Counted from the stretch's first letter, positions 39,501 to 59,903 are shown. The stretch is 64,000 bases of DNA from a virus (IMGVR_UViG_3300026290_000011:90-64089); one strand, 5' to 3'. Numbers and translations: made by a program. Notes: generated from the sequence alone by a model not told the origin.

Positions 39501-42239
39501 TTAGATTTTGATTCATGGTTAGAACAAAAATATCCCAACGAAATAGGGCAACAAATTTCAGCCCAAGACAGAACCCAACTTGTTAAGGAATGGGAAAAGC
39601 AAGTTGGAGATAAGAGCCAAAAAGTTCAATATCTTCCAATAACCGACGCAATGCGTAGTTCAGTATTATTTGAAGGACAGGCGTTATTCCAAAAGCTCCC
39701 GCAAGAACAAGTCAACGTAGAACAGAGAGGAAAGGAAATATACGATTCTGGTAAGACCCGTTACGCAGAATGGGTTAAGGAGATGAGGAAGGAGTTTGGG
39801 GAAAACCAAGATTATAGAAGTATTTATTTATTATCAAAAGTGAAAGATAGCTCTAAATTTAAGACCGATATAACAGCAGATATTTATGAAATGAACCGCA
39901 AAAACAGACAGGGCAAACTTTCCGAAAGTATCGGTAGGGAAAGTAAATCCGCCGTAGAATTTATGAGGAATAAACTTGTCCCGATTAGCACAAGACTTGG
40001 GAACATAGCTCCATCGTTAAAAAGTAGGTTAAGAGAATTTGAATTTGATTATGGCAAAGAAGTAACCGTACAACTAAAAAGGGTACAGCCATTTTTACAA
40101 AAGAGTTCGAAACTTGAAAAAGAAATACAGGCAGATTTAGACCTCGCATTAAAGAACGGCGATGTTAAAAAGATAAACGAAATAATAAAGAATAATGACT
40201 TAGAATCCGAATATAAAGAAGTAAGAACCTTGTTAGATGGATTGTATAAAAAAGCTATTGATGTAGGAATAGACTTAGGATATAGAGAAAATTACCATCC
40301 AAGAAGCGTTAAAGACCTTGAAGCGTTTATAGACTACTTTGAGAAATCCGGTGAATGGAATAGGTTCCAAGAATTGATAGACCAAAAGACAATCCAGAAG
40401 GGAGATATATTAACCCTTGAGGAAAAAGTAAACCTTATCAATAATGCGTTACGTGGTTATAATGACGGCATATCGCTTTCTAAAACCGCTAATATGAAAG
40501 AAAGAAAAGTTCCTATTATAGATTCGGAAATAAACAAATTCTATTATGATTCTAACACGTCTCTTGTAAGATACATCAGTGCAGTAAATGAAATTATAGA
40601 AGCGAGAAAATTCTTTGGTAAGAAGAAACAAGCTAAGGTAAGTAGCGAATTAACCGACATCAGGGATAAAACTAAGAGTTTAAGAAAAGCCAAAATTAAT
40701 GCTTTACAGAATCCAAACGGGGTAACGTTATCTATATATTACCAAGCTAAGAATGAGTTAGAAGATGCAAGGAAACAGTCAAAGGATTACCAAGAAAGAC
40801 TTAAACAAAGACGTGAAAAAACCCTTTATGAAAAGAGAATACTTGAAGGGCATACGGAACTAACTAAAAAGAAATTGATTCCGTTAGAAGAATTCAGCAT
40901 CGATAATTCAATAGGTAATTATGTATTGGATTTAATTAAAGAAAACCAACTAAATGCACAGCAAGCGCAAGAAGTTGAAAGTTTACTTAAAGCAAGGTTC
41001 AACCAACACGGAACTTCAGGACTTGTTTCTTCTATGAAAAACATAAGTTATGTAATAGCACTTGGTTCGCCAACGTCCGCAATTACTCAAATTGGCGATT
41101 TAGCCATACCTCTTTATAGGACAGGTCCCTTAAGAACGTTACAGGCGTTAGGGGAATCGGTATTTAATAGAGGAGCAATAAAACTTGAAGATTTAGGAAT
41201 TAACCCGGAGAAGATAGCCCAAGAATTTTCAGACCCAAGAAGAAGATCGAGAATGGTTCAGAAAGTGTTCACTCTTACGGGATTTAATAAAATTGACATA
41301 CTTGGTAAAGAAACGTTAGTGAATGCAACCTTAAAGAAATACCAGAGAAAAGCTAATAATCCTAATAAAGAGTTTCTTAGAAGATTAGAAAAGGTATTTG
41401 AAGGTGAAACAGACCAGGTAATAAAAGACTTACAAAACAAAGAGATTACCGAAAATGTAAAATTGTTATTATTCAATGAGTTATTAGACACTCAACCGAT
41501 AGCACTTTCAGAGATGCCCGAAGGATATTTAACGGCAGGCGATGGAAGAATATTTTATATGTTAAAAACTTTCTTTATTAGAAGAATAGATTACTACAGA
41601 AACGAAACCTTTAAGCTAATGAAGGATAAAGAAACAAGACCGGAAGGGATTAAAAATCTTATTTATTTGACTATATCTATTATGCTAATGGAAGCCGGGG
41701 CAGATGAATTAGAAGATTTATTACTCGGTAGAGAAACATCTCTAAAAGATAGGGTGATAGATAACCTTGCCCGTTTGGTGGGATTTTCAAAATATAGTGT
41801 AGATCAAGTTACAACCAAAGGACTTTTTTCCACAGTAGCCGGAATGATAGTACCTCCGTTTGATTTATTTGATGATATGCAAAAAGACATATTCAATTAT
41901 ATCAATGGTAAAGACGTACCTATTAGAAGCGTAAAAAACATTCCTGTATTAGGCAAGATAGCTTATAATTGGTGGATGGGTGCTTATATGGATAATAAAT
42001 CTTTACTTAGAAAACACGGATTAGATAAATCAGAACAAATTAAAGCCATTAAAGAAAAACAAAAAGAAGTAGACAAATTACGTGAAGACGTTCTTAAGGG
42101 TAAAATAGATAATAGAGTTTACCAGGATGCAAAGGACGACTTAGAATATATGAAACGTGATTCAGAAGATTATGACAGGTATAAATACTTACAGAACGAA
42201 AGGAAAAGAGAGAACGAAAGAATCCTTGAGGGTAGGTAA
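30588..42239 (+). CDS. Giant polyvalent ejection protein (3883 aa)
   Basis: Hydrophobic Gly/Ala segment near aa 380-420; ParB-like fold (IPPVMVY...TLNHSRL); two ART-like segments (VYHST..., FKRWFGKSKVVD...IVYHSS); zincin-like WEEAFH; LVEEVQSDW domain; helical C-terminus. Confidence 0.8.
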   Translation: MLPIKRRPINRNIFGDENEVSTLESPNKTPLNRKPINRDFLSDAPIIEQQETEQSKQPSLATQELNRYFGDPLTGDGQIRQNELGLSNKDKDRVYDIAKKRIKPEDVLGLLEPSQPKGNILSTIIPDAKAEPKFDSFLGDISPIKDTKAQPSTLTPAESTQGFQKESLNRQLLKDIYGLSDEEINKGSSKKAESILLGIEQQGKINQKEYDEIVKSLDTNTKNLEKLHIKINTLKDNIKTPQDLETFNQSIEEYNQLLNQINPSFKRLIELDKSGGELADRSKLAQDYLSRSQREESNVGDLPKEFWKTLKYMPQQAIGGSLEMLNEILAQMNLNKGILYDPEQTAIKKAGTWLREQGKLKERELKPKTGFWGELGSGAATMAIAAPLTAGVSVATGNPVAGFVAGFIPSFVLEGGLAYNEAKEYGLSDKEASLYSLPVGLISGAIEQLSELKILKKLGLTKKIAQEVTEKLAQKKLLPKIGEAMITGAKWEGIEELSQEITQLISESLYKRSEDLPGLNEILERISTSALYGSILGGFMGGGTALLTHPQSKKIAKDLGIRLKAAEERTLQDDTDRIEQINKLFDRKQPIQERTSQPQMGERIIPDAEQQTADLPSLEELQGIKNEPVRTDIAELPKERSTAKDSQEVGEEKTTDFEKVTQRIKEAGITEQQDIEDIIAEAELVQQDEPGKTIDAIIDESLSYYKGLQQPKVDNNANAIKNLAERGRKPEEISKALNVPIEEVAKLVQEKPKTEIAEQKPLEPQPIENVEQSPTKLSNIDYATVEKSLKDIPDLQKKPTGWKLFETKKGEKSFALVDPNTKEYKTFNSYPEAQSYAIDNPITLKEIPSGEIITQKLVQPEPIIDKSIQTDTKVTEQPSNSKEPYDDFINELTNELERSGKQRRKAILEGKQSKATVNIERLANKYNLPKKMVDNLAGIGELSSVDSDPKIIKDVINKSFKQELKKYTDLAEKYKPLEPEMVTDVTPEVANVTKTEKVIKDAQSQLDKLLARRKEIYNLMEQTRDNLQFQKLAKEDSDLIGKINQIEKKYKIGGRGKFGEKTIKDIVNLAVREYQEQPAFISFQFLNPQARGMGIKKLEKAGYNVKKLDDNYIKIEKRIGEEVTKETDVISDKEKIEEKESRVKFYEVAPDEVNVNTEAMQNREAKFSKETYNSIIEDVKSGDFDIANIPPVMVYKDETGKLWTLNHSRLKAYQDLKAEGNEDFQTIPVQEIKAKNLEEAGKLAKEKSNIGAKETPIERAKIYRKDREGGLPENRIIQKAEQLEGRNKNHVINLSYLNPDGKTITSYSNVGENVSGGRVMRDVADYIGEVRKENKELTDLHEDELFEWLYTNGAMDNFKNKIKFKENIESFVKHASFNPNELLGVGKNKVVRGSHTIEVDKKLEGARKRRKDLEKERTDFEAGKTSLPFGLTPKEYLSEISQKIANIDKDILDLTEDRRTAVQSDRLQDDLFSQITEEVENEQAEEIIATRPTEELEELAENTESIEKSKKRISTEEIQQAVDKVEVVIKPKKSAPLIKPPKGTNAVIVTFNNGKVSKLPAKDLDVIGNDYSTVKELSFGNVEFNKSGGLKWDTFKEVKKIVPSEQTLRQSIENEGDSEYLSSVKKDKGAGVNLPENKPQTPEGKKVLPKTVNDLPSLGTDSIGRNIPNWKGSRVYHSTNEQGLKDISQKGYRFLEGDLEDEQMGYYGKAISFTPDLEYTRQFGKYITVAKLSDDIKILNLNNETDWNKYLQLTKNISSDKYGDAIREAGYDGLYDAGAGDLFIVNPKKIKYEGIDKDYEDSQSQLFYEMSREDYGKIKGEKPKFYARFSAHLPDDLKRNWSSWNFGAEGFKGTQEELENYLNSATDELPAFVSGFDIYPGTKNQFDIRELYPNYWVVVDKGFLGGLAGHELEAEDIQSALEEVKKNRHGGTGEGDFFNAEQFIPVYSEEPYGKFGLHILRTEDAEITKEHKALVKQAIENGKIKSHPDYPELSSQPNRTPDKGVQTLNQDILERNDLQKLQDRKRHLELVIEEAGKKNNTKAVTDAKNELKEVNRKLSNRRSKESQFDIFGDAQNQETLFQTNHNKTRTAFNKLSPKEQTKFLNQLEKMLADNWGVEFKNLSKEQAAGITQLLKRMIQLDPDTANLTTVWEEAFHASMIALAKPFAARNMLREAGWNGKGEIWDVVNNQSLRDAHEKLAKDFIKWAESSKEPSTRTEKVFALLKDLWNKIAAFLYQSGFHTHAGYFEMLYSGKLKASAEGINVEDLAQSLAQEINREENFKRWFGKSKVVDKKKNPLIVYHSSTENFDEFQIGDVGFHFGTKEQAEKRASPIYKRGRKPLTRIDENNKVLITSERAGFYPAYLSIQNPIDIIDNGFEDPNAYVESLAESNEMMYDKKLFTRKELDDLSAKLDNVGNKKGFSIIQKFLKDKGFDGIVYFNNFEGDGRSYAAFNPTQIKSIFNRGTFDPNDANILGQSFSPIWFSKLERVIEQKAPNKNINPTSLIAMLKNNGVKDEEIKWLDVKGFLEANPKATKKELIDYVKSNQVEIKEVTKGVSKNIEDQFKENNLKIEINNDETEYQRDGENYYDLIDTKNGHTLFTGDREQVREYVQNDPRFKLGEPTKFEDYKTAGGSNYREVLFTLPDNDTYMQRHNDWINYARSMESKYGGGYYSQMTPEEKIRYKELEDNVGTPKKVFSSSHWDEPNVVAHVRLQDFTDTKGRKVLLVEEVQSDWHQAGKKKGYQGDTLGENYTQGVDAKGRENYKFPNAKWSISKTPSGSYVVLDDEGLAVHRADTFDKAKNEIQKWEFDTKSTPSAPFKSTWHELTLKRVLRLASEEGYDGIALTTGEQQADRYDLSKQVDEIRYDKLKNGDYQVNIFKDGKSIDSKKGDLKSLEDYVGKDIVKKIADNSNPTLNRNDNVEYSGSLKGVDLKVGGEGMKGFYDKMLPSFLNSYAKKWGARVDEITINAEGLDFDSWLEQKYPNEIGQQISAQDRTQLVKEWEKQVGDKSQKVQYLPITDAMRSSVLFEGQALFQKLPQEQVNVEQRGKEIYDSGKTRYAEWVKEMRKEFGENQDYRSIYLLSKVKDSSKFKTDITADIYEMNRKNRQGKLSESIGRESKSAVEFMRNKLVPISTRLGNIAPSLKSRLREFEFDYGKEVTVQLKRVQPFLQKSSKLEKEIQADLDLALKNGDVKKINEIIKNNDLESEYKEVRTLLDGLYKKAIDVGIDLGYRENYHPRSVKDLEAFIDYFEKSGEWNRFQELIDQKTIQKGDILTLEEKVNLINNALRGYNDGISLSKTANMKERKVPIIDSEINKFYYDSNTSLVRYISAVNEIIEARKFFGKKKQAKVSSELTDIRDKTKSLRKAKINALQNPNGVTLSIYYQAKNELEDARKQSKDYQERLKQRREKTLYEKRILEGHTELTKKKLIPLEEFSIDNSIGNYVLDLIKENQLNAQQAQEVESLLKARFNQHGTSGLVSSMKNISYVIALGSPTSAITQIGDLAIPLYRTGPLRTLQALGESVFNRGAIKLEDLGINPEKIAQEFSDPRRRSRMVQKVFTLTGFNKIDILGKETLVNATLKKYQRKANNPNKEFLRRLEKVFEGETDQVIKDLQNKEITENVKLLLFNELLDTQPIALSEMPEGYLTAGDGRIFYMLKTFFIRRIDYYRNETFKLMKDKETRPEGIKNLIYLTISIMLMEAGADELEDLLLGRETSLKDRVIDNLARLVGFSKYSVDQVTTKGLFSTVAGMIVPPFDLFDDMQKDIFNYINGKDVPIRSVKNIPVLGKIAYNWWMGAYMDNKSLLRKHGLDKSEQIKAIKEKQKEVDKLREDVLKGKIDNRVYQDAKDDLEYMKRDSEDYDRYKYLQNERKRENERILEGR

Positions 42240-42567: not shown

Positions 42568-43398
42568 TCATTTTTTATCTAATAATTGCACTAAATCTTC
42601 AATCGACCATAGTTTTTTTGTTAATCCCGCATCCATTGCAGGCGTAACCCTTAAAGATTTATGGATTCTTACAAAGTTATAATACATGAAATGAAGTGCT
42701 ATTGCATGAGCGTGGTTTTCTATCTTCTTAGAAAATCCATTTGTTAGGCGTGTAAATCTTCTCATACTCATTCGCATTGTTAAATTTTGACGTTCAACAA
42801 AACTTGTTGAAATATGTTTTGTCTTAGGTATGCCTGTAACAACATTTACTTTTGTTCCTGTGCATTCTGCCGGACTGTATCTGTGTCCCCTGTCTAAAGA
42901 TTCTCCATATAGTTTTACAAGTTGAGCATAATCTATGTCTGCTCCAAATGTTGTTTCAACAGCTTCTAAGTATGCTTTCAATCCGTCTGTGGTTAATTGT
43001 ACCCGATCACTTAATCTTGATGCTACGTCTTCCATAAATATTTTTGCATATTCTGCATCACGATTTCCAACAAGCCAAGATACTGCAAGTTTAGAATCAG
43101 AGTCTAAAGCAACCCAAGTCCAAACACTTCCAAGCCCAAACTTGCCCTGCATATCTTCGGGAAGATTTTTTTCTTTGGCATAAACGAAAGACCAAATTTC
43201 ATCACATTGAATTCTTTTTGCTTTAACATTTTTTACATTTTCATCGTGGTATTTTTGACAAGCCGTTCCAATATCAACTAATAATTTTGTTACTGTGTTT
43301 ATCGAAACATCTGCAAGTCTTGAAGTTGCTCTTAAACTATTTCCTTCAACAAGTAATCCAACAATCTGAATTCTTTTTTCTGTTGATAGCTTATTCAT
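42568..43398 (-). CDS. IS1-family DDE transposase (single ORF)
   Basis: N-terminal HTH (GNSLRATSRLADVSINTV), CDEIWSFV, LTTDGLKAY, VERQNLTMRM..RRFTR; stop codon lies inside the TIR. Confidence 0.92.
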   Translation of the reverse strand: MNKLSTEKRIQIVGLLVEGNSLRATSRLADVSINTVTKLLVDIGTACQKYHDENVKNVKAKRIQCDEIWSFVYAKEKNLPEDMQGKFGLGSVWTWVALDSDSKLAVSWLVGNRDAEYAKIFMEDVASRLSDRVQLTTDGLKAYLEAVETTFGADIDYAQLVKLYGESLDRGHRYSPAECTGTKVNVVTGIPKTKHISTSFVERQNLTMRMSMRRFTRLTNGFSKKIENHAHAIALHFMYYNFVRIHKSLRVTPAMDAGLTKKLWSIEDLVQLLDKK

Positions 43399-50805: not shown

Positions 50806-50916
50806 CAACAAAAGAGAGGAGTAAATTAATGCGTACCCTGTCCTATCAAAAAACAAACAACAATAGAATAGCCCTCAATCAAATACAGCAGGGTACGCTG
50901 ATTATTCACTAAGACT

Positions 50917-51183
50917 ATGAAAGAGATTAATTGTAAAATAATAATACTTGAGTGGATGAAAGAGAAAAATCCAATTACTTGTTTTCATCATAACATCGAA
51001 AAAGAAGTGCAGGAATACGGACTGGAAAAGTTTGGTAAGATGTATAGTTATGCTACTTATCACCGCAATTTTTGTTGGATAAAAAACGATGAAAAACTTT
51101 TAAGAGAAAACGGGATTGAGATTACCCCTTTGATAGAAGGTTCGGGGAAATTAAATAAATGGCGTATCACGTTGATTGTTTGA
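50917..51183 (+). CDS. Hypothetical (possibly winged-helix) protein
   Basis: Last gene before the cassette array. Confidence 0.5.
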   Translation: MKEINCKIIILEWMKEKNPITCFHHNIEKEVQEYGLEKFGKMYSYATYHRNFCWIKNDEKLLRENGIEITPLIEGSGKLNKWRITLIV

Positions 51184-51257
51184 AGGATGATAGCCGTTTT
51201 TCGGTATAACGATGTTGCGGTTAAGTTGCCTCTGGAAATTTTTATAGGGATAAAATA

Positions 51258-51587
51258 ATGAACAACAAAATTTATAAATGTATTCACTGTGGCAGAAACT
51301 TAGGCGATAAAGTGCCACATAGATGCAAAGGAACATTTAGAAAGAGAAAGTTACAATTTCGCAATCGGTTAAGCGGTCAACTTAAACCGCTTGTTATACC
51401 GAAAACGGCGGAAGTAGCCTTCTCGGAAGAATTAAACAAAATAATTGAAGCTGGCAATAAATTAGCCGAAGCAGCACATAAAGTTCAATCTGATTATGAC
51501 GGCATACATAGATTAAGATTAGCACTGTCAGAGTGGTATAAAGTGAGAGCTAATGAGTTTGACCGTGATAGCCGTTTTTCGGTATAA
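51258..51587 (+). CDS. Cassette 1 gene, CxxC zinc-finger hypothetical protein
   Basis: Starts in the attC loop, crosses GTT (51393) as Val, stops at the core TAA. Confidence 0.7.
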   Translation: MNNKIYKCIHCGRNLGDKVPHRCKGTFRKRKLQFRNRLSGQLKPLVIPKTAEVAFSEELNKIIEAGNKLAEAAHKVQSDYDGIHRLRLALSEWYKVRANEFDRDSRFSV

Positions 51588-51709
51588 CGGAATGGAAACT
51601 AAAGCGCAAAAAACTTATGAATGAATTAAATAAATATTTATAAACTAAATTATGCCAACAATCCTTAACTAACCAGCGATATTTTTTGTCGCTTTGAGTT
51701 TTTATTTAG

Positions 51710-51979
51710 TTGGATTTGAGGCGGGAGAAACTTATGAATTTTAAAAAAGGTGATAAGATAGAATGGACTTATGAACATTCTTTGAATCGAAAATCTAAAA
51801 CTCATATAACTAAAACCGGCATTTTTATTAGGGTACTTGATATGAGAAAATTAAGCAGAGCGAGAAGGATTCCGCAATATAATAGCGAAATATCATCTTA
51901 TGCAATAGTACATTTTGATGGGAATAAAAACCCGTCTAAAGTTTTAATTAATGAATTGCGAGCCGCAAATTCCAACTAA
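51710..51979 (+). CDS. Cassette 2 gene, SH3/KOW-like hypothetical protein (likely start 51734)
   Basis: FKKGDKIEW...TGIFIRV; GGGAG RBS before ATG 51734; stop is the core TAA. Confidence 0.65.
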   Translation: MDLRREKLMNFKKGDKIEWTYEHSLNRKSKTHITKTGIFIRVLDMRKLSRARRIPQYNSEISSYAIVHFDGNKNPSKVLINELRAANSN

Positions 51980-52033
51980 CGCTGCGGTTTTTAAGCCGTT
52001 GCGGAAATATTAACAATTTAATTTGAGGATAAA

Positions 52034-52393
52034 ATGAACACAGAAGAAAAGAAATTGCACAAAGAAATTGTTGAAGAATTAAAAAATAAAGGATGGACTA
52101 ACCCAGCAATAAATGAAAGTTTTGCACAGGAATTAATTTTAGATGTTTACAAGATAGCAAGCAATCGGCTTGAAAAAATTGTTAGCCAGAAAACGGCGGG
52201 CGGATGGAGAGACGCAAAGAAAGACCCGCCAGAGTTATCAACATCAATGAAAATAAATGCAGTATTAGTTATACACAGAAATTATATAAAATTTGGATGG
52301 AAAACAGAGATTGGGTGGCATATAGAAAATTCGCCAAGTTATTGGGACGAAGAAATTAAATATTGGATGCCATTACCAGAATTGCCAGAATGA
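52034..52393 (+). CDS. Cassette 3 gene, DUF551-like protein
   Basis: WRDAKKDPP...YWMPLPELP; crosses GTT 52181 as Val. Confidence 0.65.
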   Translation: MNTEEKKLHKEIVEELKNKGWTNPAINESFAQELILDVYKIASNRLEKIVSQKTAGGWRDAKKDPPELSTSMKINAVLVIHRNYIKFGWKTEIGWHIENSPSYWDEEIKYWMPLPELPE

Positions 52394-52566
52394 TAGCCGT
52401 TTTTCTGGCTAACAGATTTGCAACTAACAAGATTGCGGAAGCAAAGAATGAACTTAGATTTTTTAATTAACATAAAATTATTAACAAACAAAAATAGCCA
52501 AACCGTAATAGCAATTCTTTGTTGATTGCCTTGTTATACGGATTTTGGCGGACATAGGAGTATCTA

Positions 52567-52845
52567 ATGGAATTTACAAAAGAAGAAATATTGCAGTGCA
52601 TTAGCGGAGAATTGCTTGCCGAATGTATAGCAGATAAAATATTACAGAACAAAAAAAATCATTTTGAGGAATTTGATAAAGCCCTAATCGAGGGTATGAG
52701 AAAAGCTGCACGGATGGTAGTTGACGAACTGATTAAAGAATATGATTTTGAGAAGGAAATACAGACAAGAGTCAAAAACACTTTAACCAGTATGACGAAA
52801 GCGGAAGTATTAAGGCTTATAGCGAAAGAGGAAGTTATTTTTTAA
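52567..52845 (+). CDS. Cassette 4 gene, hypothetical protein
   Basis: AGGAG RBS just downstream of GTT 52533. Confidence 0.65.
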   Translation: MEFTKEEILQCISGELLAECIADKILQNKKNHFEEFDKALIEGMRKAARMVVDELIKEYDFEKEIQTRVKNTLTSMTKAEVLRLIAKEEVIF

Positions 52846-52930
52846 GGAATGCGAGCCAAAATTCCGTATAACGGATCGAGCATAAGCAGTTGCGGTAACA
52901 AATAAAAAAACTAAACAATAGGAGTTACAA

Positions 52931-53266
52931 ATGGAAACAGTAGTAAAAATTAAATGGGACGAACCGAGCGATAAAAATTGGTTGTGTCCAGACAACATCA
53001 AAACGGCTTTAAGTGCTTATTGCACAAATACAAAATTTGAGGTAAGCGAGGTTGATAGCAATCTGCTTGATGCGCAAGTTAGCCAAGCCGTTTCTCAGGC
53101 GATGCCGGAGCCGAACTCTCAAGTTTGCGCTAATTGTAAGTGGCTGGCTGATAGAGATGGAGAGAACAACTATTTCTGTAATTGTTATGAATCAGAAACT
53201 TGTGATATACTAATCATTTTGAAAGATACATTCGGGTGCAACAAATTTGAGCGCAAACTTTTGTGA
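52931..53266 (+). CDS. Cassette 5 gene, Cys-rich hypothetical protein
   Basis: AGGAG RBS in the loop; CANC...C.C...C; crosses GTT 53078 as Val. Confidence 0.65.
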   Translation: METVVKIKWDEPSDKNWLCPDNIKTALSAYCTNTKFEVSEVDSNLLDAQVSQAVSQAMPEPNSQVCANCKWLADRDGENNYFCNCYESETCDILIILKDTFGCNKFERKLL

Positions 53267-53429
53267 GGCGAAGGACTGGCTAACATTGTTGCAATTTACC
53301 CGATTGCGTGCATTGACAAATTGTTTTTATTAAAAGTTTAATGCCTTAAACAAGGCAAATTATAAACGACCGTATCTGATAGCAATTCGGAGTAGAATTG
53401 CGAGTTAGGCGGTAAAATTTGGACGTATT

Positions 53430-53642
53430 ATGAAAAAGAAAAAATTGAGTTGCTATTTTTATTTTGTAGGATGGGACTGTCTAAGTTTCGGAATTCATTT
53501 CTGTTGGAGACTGCCCAATATCGAAATACATATTCCCTTCGGATTTATAAGAATAGGTATAGAGAATCATTACGGGAAATGTATAAACGATGATTTCTGT
53601 AATAAAAGAACTTTTGGGTGGACGAAAATTTTATCCGCCTAA
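53430..53642 (+). CDS. Cassette 6 gene, hypothetical protein
   Basis: Starts after GTT 53404; stop is the core TAA. Confidence 0.55.
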   Translation: MKKKKLSCYFYFVGWDCLSFGIHFCWRLPNIEIHIPFGFIRIGIENHYGKCINDDFCNKRTFGWTKILSA

Positions 53643-53669
53643 CGAGTGGAAACTTACCCGATTGCGTAA

Positions 53670-54476
53670 ATGAAAAAGGAAAACATTTTGAAAGAAGAAA
53701 CTAACATAACAGCACAAACTAAACAGCCCGAAGATAAAAGCAATTCGGGTAGAGTTTTTAGTTATGTGCCGTTTTATGATTTAGATAATATTACATTGTT
53801 TAATAATGATTACCGAAATGTAATTGATAGCCTTGCGCCCGCAGATTTGATTATTGCCGATCCTCCTTATGGGGAAAAACAAGCAAGTTGGGATGAGGAG
53901 AAACCAGATGAAGAAGTTTGGCGGACATTCTATGATAAATTAAAAGACGGTGGTGTTTTATATTATTGGGGTTTTTGGGGGCACGCTGAATGGATATTGA
54001 GAAATGCAAGGCGAGCGGGTTTTACTGAACAGAGTAGAATCGTTTGGTGGTTTGCAACAGGAAGACCAGAGAAAAAAAGTTATAGGGAAGATACAGAAGA
54101 TTGTTATTACTTTTCTAAGGGTGAACCAAATTACTTCAATCCGAATAATTATTACGAACCTTATGACAAAGTTTCTAATTACGAACGATATAATAAAAAC
54201 GGCAAACATCCAGGAACGATATGGCGAGCGAGTCGGATAATGTGGAATCATCCCGAAAATGTCGGGCACGAAACCCAAAAACCCCTTACGCTTTATAAAA
54301 AAATAATTGATATATCTTGTCCGCCAAACGGCATTGTTTACGATTTCTTTTGTGGAAGCGGAACGACTTTATTAGCAGCTAAACAGTTGGGGCGCAAGGC
54401 GGTCGGAATAGAAAAAGAAGAAAAATATTGCAATATAATAACGAAGAGACTAAGCCAAATGGAAATGCAACTTTGA
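53670..54476 (+). CDS. Cassette 7 gene, beta-class N6A/N4C DNA methyltransferase
   Basis: ADPPY precedes HETQKP and DFFCGSGTT. Confidence 0.9.
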   Translation: MKKENILKEETNITAQTKQPEDKSNSGRVFSYVPFYDLDNITLFNNDYRNVIDSLAPADLIIADPPYGEKQASWDEEKPDEEVWRTFYDKLKDGGVLYYWGFWGHAEWILRNARRAGFTEQSRIVWWFATGRPEKKSYREDTEDCYYFSKGEPNYFNPNNYYEPYDKVSNYERYNKNGKHPGTIWRASRIMWNHPENVGHETQKPLTLYKKIIDISCPPNGIVYDFFCGSGTTLLAAKQLGRKAVGIEKEEKYCNIITKRLSQMEMQL

Positions 54477-54573
54477 AAAAATGAGGCACATAACGGAGTT
54501 GCGGCTAAGCGGTGCCGGAAAGGTAAGCACAAAACAGATTTGAATAACATAACCATAAACAAGGAGTAGTAAC

Positions 54574-54765
54574 ATGATTAATATAAGTGATTTAAACGAA
54601 CTCTATTCTGCCGTGCAAATGCTTGAAAGCATGACACAATTAGTAGAAAGTCTTAATAGTAAGACCAATAATAATATTTATGAAGAAACTAAATACGCGA
54701 GGATAGCAATTAAGCGAGCAAAAGAAGCGTATGAGAAAATTAAGACCTCTACCTATGTTAGTTAA
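54574..54765 (+). CDS. Hypothetical protein lying wholly inside the cassette 8 attC loop
   Basis: AAGGAG RBS; lies between the L arms at 54500-54515 and 54774-54791. Confidence 0.55.
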   Translation: MINISDLNELYSAVQMLESMTQLVESLNSKTNNNIYEETKYARIAIKRAKEAYEKIKTSTYVS

Positions 54766-55348
54766 AAATGATAGGCATCCGCTTGAGCCGCTTGTTATGC
54801 CGTTTGGGCACGACAAGAAATACGATATAATATTGGCAGACCCACCTTGGAATATACGCTGGGGAGGAAGTAACAGCATAGGGTTGAAACCTTTACAATA
54901 CCCCACAATGCTAATAACGGAACTTTGCCAATTGCCCGTTAAACAAATTGCAAATGATTGTAGCAAACTATTTTTGTGGACAACCAACGGCTTCTTGCCC
55001 GAAGCGTTGGGGATATTAAAATTTTGGGGTTTCCAATATGATAAACTTTGGACATGGTGCAAACCAACTGGAGCCGGAGGACACCCCAGAAATGCAACAG
55101 AACATTTAATTGAAGCAAGTAGAGGCGCAGTAAAGAGTATAGGCAGACATGAAAAAGCAGTAAACAATTGGTTTGAAGCCCCAACGCAAGGGCATAGCAC
55201 AAAACCAGAAAAGGCAAGAAGATTGATAGAATATTGTTACCCTAATACAACTAAGATTGAATTATTTGCAAGGCGTAAAGCCGTTGGTTGGGATGTGTGG
55301 GGGAACGAACTTGAAAATAGTATAGAGTTAGTGCCCAAATCGGCATAA
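54731..55348 (+). CDS. Cassette 8 gene, MT-A70-family adenine methyltransferase
   Basis: ILADPPW, LFLWTT, HSTKP, IELFAR; true start may be nearer 54797. Confidence 0.88.
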   Translation: MRKLRPLPMLVKNDRHPLEPLVMPFGHDKKYDIILADPPWNIRWGGSNSIGLKPLQYPTMLITELCQLPVKQIANDCSKLFLWTTNGFLPEALGILKFWGFQYDKLWTWCKPTGAGGHPRNATEHLIEASRGAVKSIGRHEKAVNNWFEAPTQGHSTKPEKARRLIEYCYPNTTKIELFARRKAVGWDVWGNELENSIELVPKSA

Positions 55349-55394
55349 CATATTGCGGTTAACCTTGCGAGCGGACTAAAACAGAAATGAAATT

Positions 55395-56048
55395 ATGAAA
55401 GAAAAAACAGGACAAAATAAAAATACTGAATTGACTGAGCGAATAGCGAAGTCAAGCGTTGAACCGCCAGTTATGCAGTTTGGGCACTGTAAGAAGTATA
55501 ATATTATTTACGCTGACCCACCGTGGTATAGAGGGCAAAGGATGTATAGCAGCAATAAGAACGACCACCACGTTGAAGCAGATAGACATTACCCGATTAT
55601 GAAAAAGAAAGCACTTTGCGATTTACCCATAAAACAAATTGCGGCGGATGATAGTGTATTATTTATGTGGGTTACTGACAGCAACTTAGACGAAGCAATG
55701 GGAGTCATTAAAGCGTGGGGGTTTAAGTATAAAACAGTTGCATTTATTTGGCTAAAGAAAGAAAAAAGCGGGAAGCAAGTTTGCTTTATGGGTTGTTGGA
55801 CTATGAAAAATGCGGAAATAGTTTTGTTGGCAACAAGGGGGAGAATGACTAAACACTTAAAAAGTCGCAAAGTGCGCCAATTACAAGAGGCAATAAGAGA
55901 GCGTAAGATACACAGCAGGAAACCACAAATAATTAGGGATAGGATAGTGGAAATGTTTGGGGATGAGCTACCTAAAATAGAATTATTTGCAAGGGAAAGG
56001 ATAGAAGGTTGGGATGCGTGGGGAAATGAAGTGCCCAAATCTGCATAA
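55395..56048 (+). CDS. Cassette 9 gene, MT-A70-family adenine methyltransferase
   Basis: IYADPPW, LFMWVT, HSRKP, IELFAR. Confidence 0.9.
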   Translation: MKEKTGQNKNTELTERIAKSSVEPPVMQFGHCKKYNIIYADPPWYRGQRMYSSNKNDHHVEADRHYPIMKKKALCDLPIKQIAADDSVLFMWVTDSNLDEAMGVIKAWGFKYKTVAFIWLKKEKSGKQVCFMGCWTMKNAEIVLLATRGRMTKHLKSRKVRQLQEAIRERKIHSRKPQIIRDRIVEMFGDELPKIELFARERIEGWDAWGNEVPKSA

Positions 56049-56075
56049 CGGTCAAAACTAAAGCGCAAAAACGGA

Positions 56076-56387
56076 TTGAATAAATTAAATGAATTACAAA
56101 CTAAAATAAGCCAAAAACCAACAACCCCAAGCGATGCTTTTGTCGCTTTGAGTTTGTTGTTGGTTTGCAAAAGGGCGGGAGTAAAAGATATGAAAATTAA
56201 AGAAGGTGGATCAACACAAAATATTAGGGGTAAGAAAATTGAGGAAATAAAAATTAATTGGACACAAAGTGAAAGTTATATATTTGAAATGTGGGTAAAT
56301 GATAGTTTGTCATACTTGACAATTAATGAATTGTTAGAATTAAAAACCGAAATACAAAAGGCATTAGATAAAGCGGTTAAATCTTAG
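56076..56387 (+). CDS. Cassette 10 gene, hypothetical protein
   Basis: Crosses GTT 56159; an internal ATG with RBS gives a shorter alternative. Confidence 0.5.
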   Translation: MNKLNELQTKISQKPTTPSDAFVALSLLLVCKRAGVKDMKIKEGGSTQNIRGKKIEEIKINWTQSESYIFEMWVNDSLSYLTINELLELKTEIQKALDKAVKS

Positions 56388-56456
56388 CCCTTTTGTCAAA
56401 CTAACGGAGTTGGCGATAATGCGCTATCACAAAATTAAAACAAAAGGAATGATGCA

Positions 56457-56819
56457 ATGGAAAACCAAAACAGAATTTACAAACTACTACTCGGAGTCGC
56501 ATTGATTGCCGAGTTAGTGGGATTTGCGCTCGTCCATTTCGATAACACAAAAAAACAAGAAAGAATTGAGCGACTTGAAAAGATTATTAACAACACACAT
56601 TTAGATACGCTGATTACAAAAACAGAAAGTATAAATATTGATGGTTGGTGGAGAAATTATTCTTCTTGGGAAGAACCTCTTAATCTTTTAGAAATGAATG
56701 ATAAACTTGATAAACTTATAAAAGCTACTGGTTATGAATATACGAGAGAAGTGCGATACAAGACTACACATTACGAAGATAGTAAACTTGAAAAAATAAA
56801 GAGCGCAAATTCCAACTAA
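56457..56819 (+). CDS. Cassette 11 gene, membrane-anchored hypothetical protein
   Basis: TM segment LLLGVALIAELVGFALV is encoded by the L arm and core; stop is the core TAA. Confidence 0.6.
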   Translation: MENQNRIYKLLLGVALIAELVGFALVHFDNTKKQERIERLEKIINNTHLDTLITKTESINIDGWWRNYSSWEEPLNLLEMNDKLDKLIKATGYEYTREVRYKTTHYEDSKLEKIKSANSN

Positions 56820-56862
56820 CGGTGTGGTTTTTTACCCGCACGGCTAAACAGAAAAAAATATT

Positions 56863-57501
56863 ATGGATGAAAATTTGGAACTAAAAGAGAACAAAATTAA
56901 CAGCACAAATTTAAGTGTCGGAGTAGAAAAACTTGTTAGCCCGATTGGGCACAACAAGAAATATAATGTTATTTATGCCGATCCGCCGTGGAGTTATAGT
57001 GACCAAGGATGCCAAGGAACGATGGCGAACCATTACCCCGGAATGAGCATGGACGAAATGAAGCAATTGCCGATAAAAGAAATTGCAGACAAAGATTGCA
57101 TTTTATTTATGTGGACTACTTACCCAATGTTGAAAGAAAGTTTAGAGCTGATAGACGCATGGGGATTCACATACAAAACAATCGCATTTAACTGGATTAA
57201 GAAAAACAAGAGCGATGCTGGGTTCTTCTTCGGGCTTGGAAGATGGACGAGGGGTAATGGTGAGCCGTGCCTTTTGGCGACAAAGGGGAAACCCAAAAGA
57301 GTAGCAAATAATATAAGCCAATTAATATTTGCCCCATTGACGAGACATAGTGAAAAACCCCCAGAGGTTAGGGATAAAATAGTTGAGCTTTGCGGGGACA
57401 TACCGAGAATAGAATTGTTTGCGCGCCAAAAGGCAAGTGGTTGGGATAGATGGGGTAATGAACTTGATAATAGTATAAACCTTGTGCCCAATTCGGGCTA
57501 A
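56863..57501 (+). CDS. Cassette 12 gene, MT-A70-family adenine methyltransferase
   Basis: IYADPPW, LFMWTT, HSEKP, IELFAR. Confidence 0.9.
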   Translation: MDENLELKENKINSTNLSVGVEKLVSPIGHNKKYNVIYADPPWSYSDQGCQGTMANHYPGMSMDEMKQLPIKEIADKDCILFMWTTYPMLKESLELIDAWGFTYKTIAFNWIKKNKSDAGFFFGLGRWTRGNGEPCLLATKGKPKRVANNISQLIFAPLTRHSEKPPEVRDKIVELCGDIPRIELFARQKASGWDRWGNELDNSINLVPNSG

Positions 57502-57549
57502 CGATGTTGCGGTTAAGTTGCCTCTGGAAATTTTTATAGGGATAAAATA

Positions 57550-57879
57550 ATGAACAACAAAATTTATAAATGTATTCACTGTGGCAGAAACTTAGGCGAT
57601 AAAGTGCCACATAGATGCAAAGGAACATTTAGAAAGAGAAAGTTACAATTTCGCAATCGGTTAAGCGGTCAACTTAAACCGCTTGTTATACCGAAAACGG
57701 CGGAAGTAGCCTTCTCGGAAGAATTAAACAAAATAATTGAAGCTGGCAATAAATTAGCCGAAGCAGCACATAAAGTTCAATCTGATTATGACGGCATACA
57801 TAGATTAAGATTAGCACTGTCAGAGTGGTATAAAGTGAGAGCTAATGAGTTTGACCGTGATAGCCGTTTTTCGGTATAA
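57550..57879 (+). CDS. Cassette 13 gene (duplicate of cassette 1)
   Basis: Identical translation. Confidence 0.7.
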   Translation: MNNKIYKCIHCGRNLGDKVPHRCKGTFRKRKLQFRNRLSGQLKPLVIPKTAEVAFSEELNKIIEAGNKLAEAAHKVQSDYDGIHRLRLALSEWYKVRANEFDRDSRFSV

Positions 57880-58001
57880 CGGAATGGAAACTAAAGCGCA
57901 AAAAACTTATGAATGAATTAAATAAATATTTATAAACTAAATTATGCCAACAATCCTTAACTAACCAGCGATATTTTTTGTCGCTTTGAGTTTTTATTTA
58001 G

Positions 58002-58271
58002 TTGGATTTGAGGCGGGAGAAACTTATGAATTTTAAAAAAGGTGATAAGATAGAATGGACTTATGAACATTCTTTGAATCGAAAATCTAAAACTCATATA
58101 ACTAAAACCGGCATTTTTATTAGGGTACTTGATATGAGAAAATTAAGCAGAGCGAGAAGGATTCCGCAATATAATAGCGAAATATCATCTTATGCAATAG
58201 TACATTTTGATGGGAATAAAAACCCGTCTAAAGTTTTAATTAATGAATTGCGAGCCGCAAATTCCAACTAA
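58002..58271 (+). CDS. Cassette 14 gene (duplicate of cassette 2)
   Basis: Identical translation. Confidence 0.65.
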   Translation: MDLRREKLMNFKKGDKIEWTYEHSLNRKSKTHITKTGIFIRVLDMRKLSRARRIPQYNSEISSYAIVHFDGNKNPSKVLINELRAANSN

Positions 58272-58329
58272 CGCTGCGGTTTTTAAGCCGTTGCGGAATA
58301 TTTATAAATTTAATTTGGAGTAGAAAACC

Positions 58330-58743
58330 TTGAAAGAAATAATTGATTTGATTGACAAATATTGGAAATTTGACGAAGACCAACAACCATTGTCAAGCTG
58401 GCACGATAAACAAGAATTATTGCAGATCATTAGCAATCGGCTTGAAAAACTTGTTAGCCAGAAAACGGCGGACACAGAAGAAATACTGAGCGCGGTTAAA
58501 GACACTATTTCTGATGGACAATTAATGAGTATGGAAGAATCTACAGAGAAGGAATTACAAAAACATTATGATAAAACTTTAACGGTACCCTTAATTGTAG
58601 GGTTAATAAATAATATTGAGCAATACTATCCAGCCGATGTTTTTGTAAGCGGTGCGGGGGCGATGGCGAGACACGTTTTGAAACTATTCAAACAAGAGTT
58701 AATACTTGCTTGCAAGATAGAGGATAGCCGTTTTTCTGGCTAA
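58330..58743 (+). CDS. Cassette 15 gene, hypothetical protein
   Basis: Shares SNRLEK-VSQKTA arm peptide with cassette 3; stop is the core TAA. Confidence 0.6.
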   Translation: MKEIIDLIDKYWKFDEDQQPLSSWHDKQELLQIISNRLEKLVSQKTADTEEILSAVKDTISDGQLMSMEESTEKELQKHYDKTLTVPLIVGLINNIEQYYPADVFVSGAGAMARHVLKLFKQELILACKIEDSRFSG

Positions 58744-58818
58744 CGATGTGGCAAATAGCCCGAAACGGCTTTGTAAAACAAAATTAATTAACAAATAATT
58801 TAGCTATGAGGCACACCG

Positions 58819-59067
58819 ATGGAAGGTGAACAAGATTTTAGAAATAGATTTATAAACGAAGCATTAGAGATTTGTGAAAGTCATAAACCTTTAATGACAG
58901 ATTGGGAAAGAAACTTTGTAATTGATATTGCAAGATTGCATAGAAAGAGTGGGAAAGGATTGACGCAAAAACAATACAACCAATTACAACTTATTGCTGC
59001 AAATGTTAAAAGACAAATTAATGAGGTGTGCCGGAATGAATATCCTTACCCAACCTATGAAAGATAG
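58819..59067 (+). CDS. Hypothetical protein inside the cassette 16 attC loop
   Basis: GAGG RBS; MTDWERNFV...LTQKQ phage motif; ends just before the 3' L arm. Confidence 0.6.
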   Translation: MEGEQDFRNRFINEALEICESHKPLMTDWERNFVIDIARLHRKSGKGLTQKQYNQLQLIAANVKRQINEVCRNEYPYPTYER

Positions 59068-59842
59068 TTTTCGGGCTGATTTGCTTGTTGGGCTGCCGAC
59101 AATAAACGTAAACGAAATTACTCTTGGCGATAGTTTAGAGCTGTGTGAGCGAATACCCGCCAAAACCGTTGACTTGATACTTGAGGACATGCCTTACAAT
59201 ACAACTGCTTGCGGCTGGGATAAAAAGATTGATTTAGAACTTTACTGGAAAACAAGATTAAGAATATTAAAGCCAACGGGCGTAGTAGTTTTGACAGCGA
59301 GCCAGCCGTTTACCGCTGAGTTGTTAATGAGTAACAAAACAATGTTCAAATATGAATGGATTTGGAAACGCGATAGAGTAACGGGATTTTTGAATGCTAA
59401 AATTATGCCGATGAAAGAACACGAATCAATTTTAGTGTTCGCAGAAAAAATACAAAAATATTATCCAATAAAATGGCTTGGCAGGAAAGCGCATAAGAAA
59501 GGAAAAATTGTTGGGAAAAAGGTAAACGGCGGAACTTATGGAAATTTTACTGCGGTTGATAGCATAAATGACTGGAAATACCCGACAAGTATTTTAGAAT
59601 TTGATAGACCTCATCCACCGATACACCCAACGCAAAAGCCCGTTGGCTTATTCGAATATTTGATTAGAACTTATACTGATGAGAACGATTTAGTATTTGA
59701 CGGTTTTGGCGGAAGTGGGACAACCGCTATTGCTTGCCATAGAAGCAAACGAAATTTTATCGTGATTGAGAAAGGATATACATATTATGACTTAGCAACA
59801 AAGCGGTTGGACAATGAGCGAACACAACTTAGTTTATTGTAA
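58994..59842 (+). CDS. Cassette 16 gene, beta-class DNA methyltransferase
   Basis: LEDMPY, HPTQKP, DGFGGSGTT; start probably nearer 59058. Confidence 0.88.
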   Translation: MLQMLKDKLMRCAGMNILTQPMKDSFRADLLVGLPTINVNEITLGDSLELCERIPAKTVDLILEDMPYNTTACGWDKKIDLELYWKTRLRILKPTGVVVLTASQPFTAELLMSNKTMFKYEWIWKRDRVTGFLNAKIMPMKEHESILVFAEKIQKYYPIKWLGRKAHKKGKIVGKKVNGGTYGNFTAVDSINDWKYPTSILEFDRPHPPIHPTQKPVGLFEYLIRTYTDENDLVFDGFGGSGTTAIACHRSKRNFIVIEKGYTYYDLATKRLDNERTQLSLL

Positions 59843-59903
59843 CGAGGTCAGCCCAACTATGTAATGACCAGACTAATTTGCAACGAAACGTTTATAAGGT
59901 ATT

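Follow-up and report, generated by a model that had tools for sequence, protein, structure and literature searches.

The 64,000-nt stretch of viral DNA analysed here (IMGVR_UViG_3300026290_000011:90-64089, hereafter the window) carries an array of 16 short units at 51.2-59.86 kb, whose cargo consists of small open reading frames (ORFs) and five DNA methyltransferases. The units typically open with GTT, close with AAC and are joined by integron-type attC cores. Our data indicate that the sequence following the opening GTT pairs with the sequence preceding the closing AAC of the same unit far beyond the 7-nt R box, and that this outer-arm pairing is real, unit-specific and covarying. On balance, the outer arm is probably the R-box stem of the cassette's own attC, continued outward. 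Phage arrays of attC sites with methyltransferase cargo are already known (PMC9892861); what is new here is a long two-helix arm with a fixed bulge.

Specificity of outer-arm pairing

We scanned every GTT...AAC pair 80-1300 nt apart and scored inward pairing from both triplets, with bulges allowed. In this anchored gapped scan, 12 pairs scored at least 13 within 51-60 kb, compared with an average of 0.03 in mononucleotide shuffles, and the remaining 55 kb of the window held no pair at that score. The 16 opening arms and 17 closing arms were then set out as a matrix, own partner versus others: an opening arm scored a mean of 13.6 with its own closing arm over the 16 units, versus 5.5 with the closing arm just upstream of the same attC and 5.0 with all other arms. 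The own-partner mean was reached in none of 20000 permutations. Cassette ends are expected to pair better with each other than with their neighbours', and the phage arms, scoring 13-18, did so by a wider margin than that comparison calls for; four units (2, 5, 7 and 16) have weaker arms (Table 1).

The first-pass annotation, made from the sequence alone, had claimed this pairing for each cassette and named a lack of excess over shuffled controls as a result that would undo the claim. The observed excess is large, and all five of its quoted examples were found (openings at 51393, 52533, 53404, 54794 and 56935; closings ending at 51588, 52872, 53643, 55349 and 57502). Its universal wording holds for the 12 of 16 units with strong arms and not for the four weak ones, and its stem of 14-19 bp past the R box was too long: arms span 15-21 nt including the 7-nt R box, an extension of ~8-14 nt.

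Arm geometry and covariation

When viral contigs were scanned by pattern, arrays of this kind turned up in five more records (G001 to G005), two of which, G001 and G002, are one phage (100% identity) and yield no gain or loss events as a pair. The five array phages, window phage included, have almost no proteins in common except the cargo methyltransferases. Together they supplied 48 distinct arm pairs with a shared geometry: helix 1 is 9 bp, with GTTRNNNNN paired to NNNNNYAAC; a single unpaired base follows on the closing arm, at nucleotide 10 counted from the AAC end; and helix 2 extends over 6-11 bp, most commonly 8-9. The opening arm of helix 2 is usually an A/T run then GGC, with GG after the opening arm and A before the closing arm, and the helix is closed by a conserved G/A mismatch. 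A single bulge was present in 39 of the 48 pairs, at position 10 in 36, and the bulged base was T in 30 of those 39, C in 7 and A in 2. The regular bulged T noted at first pass is thus confirmed, with C or A in its place in a minority of pairs. Hairpins of the IS200/IS605 type with a bulged T are local and subterminal, while the phage arms lie 170-770 nt apart.

Covariation was assessed in the 36 distinct units that share the same register. Each of the variable positions 5-17 showed 3-4 Watson-Crick pair types, and pairing reached 96.7% in helix 1 and 94.8% in helix 2, compared with 41% and 35% for shuffled partners (maxima of 56% and 47% over 2000 shuffles); the earlier observation that sequences differ while pairing is kept therefore stands. 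Within the window, the arms of unit 9 differ from those of unit 8 by a compensated C-G to A-T change, and the arms of unit 12 differ from those of units 8 and 9 by three compensated changes. Non-Watson-Crick pairs were limited to four G.T and three A.C among 612 positions, and this near-exclusive use of Watson-Crick pairs fits DNA pairing better than RNA pairing.

attC cores and strand assignment

By sequence and predicted fold, the AAC-to-GTT segments between brackets are genuine integron attC sites, with cores that appear to follow IntI-type rules exactly. We folded the 16 cores with the terminal loop swapped for a tetraloop and the AAC/GTT ends forced to pair. All 16 adopted a common architecture in which the R box is followed by a spacer, unpaired chiefly on the AAC side, and then by a 5-6 bp stem, with bulges on the GTT arm. 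Every core starts with ..TAAC or ..CAAC, 14 of the 16 end with GTTA or GTTG, and two identical copies end with TTTA; the central spacer is asymmetric, its AAC arm contributing 4-6 nt and its GTT arm 0-3. The bottom-strand attC rule places AAC on the 5' arm and extrahelical bases opposite it at positions 16 and 23/24 and in some sites also at 20, a 6-bp stem separating the first of them from the last (Nivina et al. 2016, PMC5027507). The phage cores share both these bases and the RYYYAAC/GTTRRRY R boxes of integron cassettes. Nearly all have a single-base bulge at position 16 of the GTT arm (numbered from GTTRRRY's outer end), followed either by a 6-bp stem and a bulge at 23-24 (B3, B5, B7, B8, B10 and B15) or by bulges at 20 and 24-25 (B6 and B12). 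The bulged base of the outer arm sits 9 nt 5' of the crossover C, and the position-16 base keeps the same 9-nt distance, again 5', from the G paired to that C.

The phage cores differ from published attC sites in length: they measure 121-356 nt rather than 57-141, with 8 of the 16 above 141 nt. All of the added length is in the terminal loop, which, unlike that of integron cassettes, contains start codons, N-terminal coding sequence (the cassette gene's first 20-50 codons) or an entire ORF. Whole ORFs occupy the loops of B8 and B16, and therefore both loops of the folded site carry genes. Units 3 and 15 (52160-52199 and 58432-58471) encode unrelated proteins that share an embedded peptide, SNRLEK(I/L)VSQKTA, encoded by the L', R'' and opening-arm sequences, which amounts to natural in-frame read-through of a recombination site. 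Synthetic attC sites embedded in coding sequence are likewise read through in frame along their arms (Nivina et al. 2020, PMC7439510); those sites are engineered, whereas the phage case is natural and its frame crosses the L', R'' and outer-arm sequences.

Orientation was read on the gene strand against two controls passed through the same fold pipeline: a Vibrio anguillarum chromosomal array on phage record MK672802, and bacterial arrays beside true IntI genes. In both, bulges fell on the AAC arm, which places the genes on the attC top strand, as in complete integrons. In the window phage the bulges fall on the GTT arm, so its genes are encoded on the attC bottom strand, opposite to those of bacterial arrays; the four other array phages gave the same assignment. 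No match to a tyrosine recombinase was found in a PF00589 search of the complete 64,270-nt phage record, and neither intI nor attI adjoins the array. Because the phage has no integrase, its 16 attC cores in 8.7 kb form an attC-site cluster without an integron integrase (CALIN; at least two consecutive attC and no such integrase close by), a type that earlier work has described in phages.

Comparison with bacterial integrons

Bacteroidota have been listed among the clades earlier found without integrons (10.1101/2024.07.02.601686). We sampled 401 genomes of this GTDB phylum (the phylum of G007, entered via a Flavisolibacter genome from a chance match), and 113 of them matched the integron-integrase model TIGR02249 above its curated cut-off. 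The flanks of 20 TIGR02249-matching genes were taken for array analysis, and the arrays flanking these IntI genes have R boxes of the same GTTATAC/GTATAAC type as those of the phage. A bacterial attC reads gtataac-aa-gcgttt-c-aagcgg ... ccgctt-aaacgc-cgggtc-gttatac, and phage core B8 reads acataac-ggagtt-gcggct-aagcgg ... ccgctt-g-agccgc-tt-gttatgc. B8 has the same element order as the reverse complement of the bacterial site, with the 6-nt versus 2-nt spacer and a bulged G shared, and its stems nearly match the reverse complement of attCs in L194 and L186, beside true IntI genes. The matching order and spacer would place the phage cores in this Bacteroidota attC family. Chromosomal integrons of the phylum (G186, G202, G395 and others) have the same attC architecture with near-identical stems, and the asymmetry of the phage spacers mirrors their 2/6 spacer.

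These chromosomal integrons differ from the phage arrays in carrying their genes on the top strand and in the reach of their own-end pairing, which mostly stops at 11-12 nt with no second helix. In the V. anguillarum array, a cassette's own ends pair over 9-11 nt. Among 227 distinct chained cassettes beside IntI genes, own-end scores were 9-13 in 97%, most commonly 11-12, in a scan whose threshold of 9 cuts off any lower tail. Pairing over 9-13 nt runs 2-6 nt past the R box, defined as 7 nt in the literature (PMC5027507 among it). Seven of the 227 reached at least 14, none with the pattern of 9 bp, bulge and 8 bp. A second helix hidden in the bacterial cassettes was sought and rejected: a run of at least 6 matched bases past position 9 occurred in 5% of them versus 3% with shuffled partners, compared with 88% of phage units versus 5% with shuffled partners. 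The first-pass view that classical attC sites lack the outer arm is therefore half right, in that a short 9-13 nt form is present in bacterial cassettes while the bulge and second helix are lacking there. Across the arrays compared here, the short form is general, and the bulge and second helix are found only in phage arrays: measured bacterial arrays pair continuously over 9-13 nt, whereas phage ends pair over 15-21 nt in two helices with a bulged pyrimidine.

Related phage arrays

Polaribacter phage P12002L (L147), for which CALINs were reported by Qi et al. 2023 (PMC9892861), resembles the window phage in several respects. Its genes, including methyltransferases and a Mom-like gene, are bracketed by 17-23 nt GTT...AAC arms (29.2-31.2 kb and 37.2-40.8 kb) and lie on the attC bottom strand, and its arms are irregular near position 9-11. 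The irregularity is a mismatch or small internal loop and not the single bulged T of the window phage; in several arms a common motif, GTAATTTT, faces AAAACTAC and leaves a conserved mismatch near position 11. The attC cores of P12002L, at ~60 nt, are short compared with those of the window phage. According to the same paper, one P12002L attC was recombined by IntI1. The phage CALINs it describes are, like the present array, attC arrays with no integron integrase and with DNA methyltransferase cargo; the available part of the account describes no outer arm, bulge or inverted gene orientation.

Only G003 among the array phages encodes a tyrosine recombinase, a generic Xer-like protein. This array-adjacent enzyme was considered as an integron integrase and rejected, its 352-aa match to the IntI model reaching 66 bits where the cut-off is 265 bits. 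Directly after its gene (region L089, G003:C1:41466-44927, and 43.6-46.6 kb of G003) begins a further run of ..TAAC-bounded units with methyltransferases. In G002, the first attC core (G002:C1:32060-32215) has AAT in place of AAC at its R' end and looks like a degenerate half-site at the array edge. A single metagenome scan with the unit 12 arm returned two unrelated chance matches.

Cassette boundaries and proposed mechanism

The segment from the C at 51209 to the AA at 51587, comprising B1, an opening arm, a body and a closing arm, also occurs in phage G003, with 87% identity in the core and 94% in the body. Identity is low outside it (45% in the upstream 40 nt, 66% in the next attC core and 52-62% in the next body), so the cassette is bounded on both sides at AA/C (between AA and C) of the + strand and takes both arms with it. 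This one shared cassette thus appears to be cut where the bottom-strand assignment predicts, and it has further features of integron cassettes, including ends that pair with each other and, as in many units, a stop codon in ..TAAC.

The favoured reading, in which the outer arm continues the R-box stem outward, could work as follows. With an integron-type crossover at AA/C on the + strand (the attC bottom strand), the sequence 5' of the cut on the AAC arm (RYYYAA plus extension) would end at the far end of the integrated cassette, and its partner, GTTRRRY plus extension, would stay beside the attC core in the array. In the excised circle both halves would rejoin into one long rod, made up in order of a 6-11 bp helix with G/A closure, the extrahelical pyrimidine, 9 bp including the R box, the asymmetric spacer, and the L box carrying extrahelical bases of its own. 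In bacterial cassettes of the ordinary kind this stem takes a short form (9-13 bp); in phage cassettes it is elongated and has two helices. The long stem and flipped-out base may stabilise and mark the folded bottom-strand site of the free cassette, whose attC loop, at about 110-340 nt and partly coding, is unusually large. The recombinase would come from the host, since the phage encodes none, and would presumably be the IntI of a Bacteroidota-type integron.

In a single-stranded array, a cassette's own ends may pair in preference to the poorly matched in-array R boxes, which pair over only 4-6 nt. Such an array would become a string of alternating stems, each core hairpin lying between the previous closing stem and its own opening stem. 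It would thus be pre-folded in the connectivity of the excision product, and exchange at two successive AA/C sites would release a circle with its rod already paired, a geometry that might bias the reaction. The earlier suggestion that single-stranded units pre-fold into a structure resembling the excised-circle junction seems geometrically right, as both arms of one cassette would flank attC in the circle. Minimum-energy folds of the + strand, in stretches of 1.2-1.7 kb, predicted the outer stems in 12 of 16 units and in-array R boxes at B1 and B9 alone, sites whose adjacent arms happen to match. The further first-pass ideas, that the arm could set directionality or serve a different recombinase, are speculative.

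A stronger proposal is that the phage sites are a distinct form of integron site, with a doubled R-side stem, a fourth extrahelical base 9 nt 5' of the crossover C, and the arm as a recognition element; we regard it as doubtful. Were it true, the arm might serve a partner protein or a phage-adapted use of host IntI, and pre-folded dumbbell circles would be possible, with genes threaded through both loops of the site.

Evidence against the favoured reading and alternative explanations

Several observations weigh against the stem-continuation reading. Identical 17-nt arms surround unrelated bodies in three phages and within the window; the arms of unit 4, for example, recur in phages G003 and G002 with unrelated bodies between them. 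All stem sequences are common to units 3 and 15, whose loops both differ, and identical arms also adjoin different attC cores. Crossovers at AA/C alone do not account for identical arms on unrelated bodies, which hint that arms are selected at the sequence level or exchanged by other routes. Helix 2 is semi-conserved in sequence (A/T run, GGC, then GG), which a purely structural role does not predict. Together, the shared arms, shared stems and helix 2 preferences may leave room for a sequence-reading partner protein, for homologous exchange at the arms, or for another route of cassette formation. The fold predictions are purely thermodynamic. No circle, excision event or integrase activity was observed, the single cassette shared with G003 being the only sign of mobility, and no recombinase was found in the window phage, G002, G004, G005 or G006. 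Finally, a search of 185,579 species-representative bacterial genomes with the opening-arm pattern GTTAWACGGATTTTGGCGG gave 9 chance matches and no arrays; therefore, no bacterial source of the long-arm form is known.

The two-helix arm with its flipped-out pyrimidine might instead be the site of a different or additional protein, such as a non-IntI recombinase or a phage or host accessory factor, belonging to machinery distinct from classical integrons. The absence of the second helix and bulge from about 230-250 cassettes beside true IntI genes, set against their presence in five unrelated phages, is consistent with such a protein, as are the similar irregularity near position 10-11 in P12002L, the sequence preferences and conserved G/A closure of the second helix, and the position of the G003 array after an Xer-like recombinase gene. 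Nonetheless, we consider this explanation unlikely: the array phages share no protein except cargo methyltransferases, four of the five array-bearing records lack a tyrosine recombinase, the attC cores obey IntI rules to the nucleotide, and IntI1 is reported to have recombined the P12002L attC described above. Homologous exchange of modules between co-infecting phages through the phage's Erf protein and exonuclease, with the arms as short shared boundaries and their pairing secondary, would account for the identical 17-nt arms around unrelated bodies and for units 3 and 15, which have the same stems and different loops; Erf-like protein and exonuclease genes also lie ~3 kb upstream of the array. 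However, exchange of this kind needs identity between partners and not complementarity between the two ends of one unit, which leaves the 95-97% pairing, the 3-4 pair types per position and the fixed bulge unexplained. Most arm types also occur once in the sample, and we judge this explanation improbable.

A role for the arms in RNA, where a long-range stem would close a transcript segment for RNase III type processing, message stability or translation tuning, could relate to the placement of all array genes and all arms on the transcribed strand, and to several units in which the opening arm directly precedes a Shine-Dalgarno-like GGAG and start codon and the stop codon falls in the closing arm. 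The register, however, is fixed to the GTT/AAC crossover triplets, the short pairing form is present in bacterial cassettes, and the opening arm of many units falls within the reading frame, where cutting would destroy the message. Pairs of the G.U type are also all but missing, at 4 of 612 positions and no commoner than A.C. Set beside RNase III-type stems (~20 bp and G.U tolerant), the arm duplex is of borderline length (17-20 bp, bulged). We consider action in RNA quite unlikely. Chance, or a by-product of coding constraint at protein termini, is extremely improbable as the cause of the pairing. The arms of the three MT-A70 paralogues do encode similar N- and C-terminal peptides, but those paralogues differ by compensated changes, and arms also occur in non-coding positions and around unrelated genes. 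These compensated changes, with the shuffles and permutations reported above, led us to reject both.

Relation to integron biology

Integron sites are defined by folded structure, with the R box treated as 7 nt, and in the phage-borne arrays the R-side stem reaches 15-21 nt and includes a conserved flipped-out base. Our literature search returned no paper on an extended two-helix arm, a fixed bulge, or the absence of such an arm from bacterial cassettes of the same family. Should the extension matter for recombination, it would provide a new determinant of how sites fold or are recognised, a handle on the exchange of anti-restriction genes (methyltransferases) by integrase-less phages, and a natural design rule for recombination sites within coding sequence. 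If it is irrelevant to recombination, its conservation across unrelated phages still needs explaining.

Array setting and unit map

The virus record is 64,270 nt long and complete by CheckV, and the window covers nearly all of it. It encodes tailed-phage functions (terminase, portal, major head protein, tail fibre, exonuclease, Erf-type annealing protein and RNA ligase), nearly all on the + strand. A terminase search gave no close cultured relative (identity at most 32%), and megablast of the array against 50,697 phage records gave no match. The 25 phage contigs with a relative of the RNA ligase gene just upstream of the array contain no such arrays; this phage group therefore does not carry the array as a lineage trait. 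Relatives of the unit 1 protein were partial-length only and came mostly from short metagenome contigs. Of the five array methyltransferases, three are of the MT-A70 type and two of the N6_N4 type.

Table 1. Coordinates of attC cores and bracketed units in the window.
Feature	Position	Strand	Description
Orphan closing arm GCCGTTTTTCGGTATAAC	51193-51210	+	Array left edge; no opening partner upstream; score 15 vs opening arm 51393
attC core B1	51204-51399	+	196 nt, R' ..TAAC to R'' GTTATAC; loop holds start of ORF 51258-51587
B1 fold	51204-51399	+	R box, asymmetric spacer, bulges on GTT arm
Unit 1 bracket	51393-51588	+	Arms 51393-51409 / 51571-51588; 9 bp + T + 8 bp; score 15
attC core B2	51582-51712	+	131 nt; folded
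Unit 2 bracket, weak	51706-51980	+	Opening 51706-51723 (TTT start), closing 51960-51980; score 10.5
attC core B3	51974-52187	+	214 nt; bulges 16, 23; holds start of ORF 52034-52393
Unit 3 bracket	52181-52413	+	Opening 52181-52197, closing 52396-52413; score 15
attC core B4	52407-52539	+	133 nt; folded
Unit 4 bracket	52533-52872	+	Opening 52533-52549, closing 52855-52872
attC core B5	52866-53084	+	219 nt; bulges 16, 23
Unit 5 bracket, weak	53078-53284	+	~8 bp + partial pairing; score 8
attC core B6	53278-53410	+	133 nt; bulges 16, 20, 25
Unit 6 bracket	53404-53643	+	Opening 53404-53420, closing 53626-53643; score 15
attC core B7	53637-53767	+	131 nt; bulges 16, 24
Unit 7 bracket, weak	53761-54494	+	10 bp, score 10; body = N6_N4 DNA methyltransferase
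attC core B8	54488-54800	+	313 nt; bulges 16, 23; whole 63-aa ORF 54574-54765 in loop
Unit 8 bracket	54794-55349	+	Opening 54794-54811, closing 55331-55349; score 16; body = MT-A70 methyltransferase
attC core B9	55343-55476	+	134 nt; folded
Unit 9 bracket	55470-56049	+	Opening 55470-55488, closing 56030-56049; score 17; MT-A70 paralogue
attC core B10	56043-56165	+	123 nt; bulges 16, 23
Unit 10 bracket	56159-56405	+	Opening 56159-56176, closing 56387-56405; score 13.5
attC core B11	56399-56519	+	121 nt; folded
Unit 11 bracket	56513-56820	+	Opening 56513-56531, closing 56801-56820; score 14.5
attC core B12	56814-56941	+	128 nt; bulges 16, 20, 24
Unit 12 bracket	56935-57502	+	Opening 56935-56954, closing 57482-57502; score 18; MT-A70 paralogue
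B13, unit 13, B14, unit 14	57496-58272	+	Copies of B1, unit 1, B2, unit 2; brackets 57685-57880, 57998-58272
attC core B15	58266-58459	+	194 nt; bulge at 23 or 24; stems as B3, loop different
Unit 15 bracket	58453-58744	+	Opening 58453-58469, closing 58727-58744; arms = unit 3's, body unrelated
attC core B16	58738-59093	+	356 nt; 82-aa ORF 58819-59067 in loop
Unit 16 bracket, weak	59087-59857	+	9 bp + partial pairing, score 9; body = N6_N4 methyltransferase

At the left end of the array, 51193-51409 forms a complete extended attC in linear DNA: a type 1 closing arm, B1 and a type 1 opening arm. The orphan closing arm is fully complementary to the opening arm at 51393, and B1 therefore carries an extended R stem in situ. 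The ORF upstream (50917-51183) has a closing arm and lacks an opening arm. At the right end, the array stops at the AAC of unit 16 (59857), with no attC beyond. An 836-nt direct repeat with 98.8% identity (51200-52034 and 57492-58327) comprises cassettes 1 and 2 and ~50 nt from the start of the attC core that follows; the left edge of the repeat falls at the TAAC of an R box and its right edge inside an attC loop.

Three further features lie outside the array. A 10-bp inverted repeat, GCGTACCCTG...CAGGGTACGC, at 50831-50895, with ~45 nt separating its arms, is located between the RNA ligase gene and unit 1 and is not attC-like. A single ORF of 3883 aa (30588-42239) follows the tail genes. The only sizeable minus-strand gene (42568-43398) has weak matches to IS1-type DDE transposases (PF03400, 28 bits).

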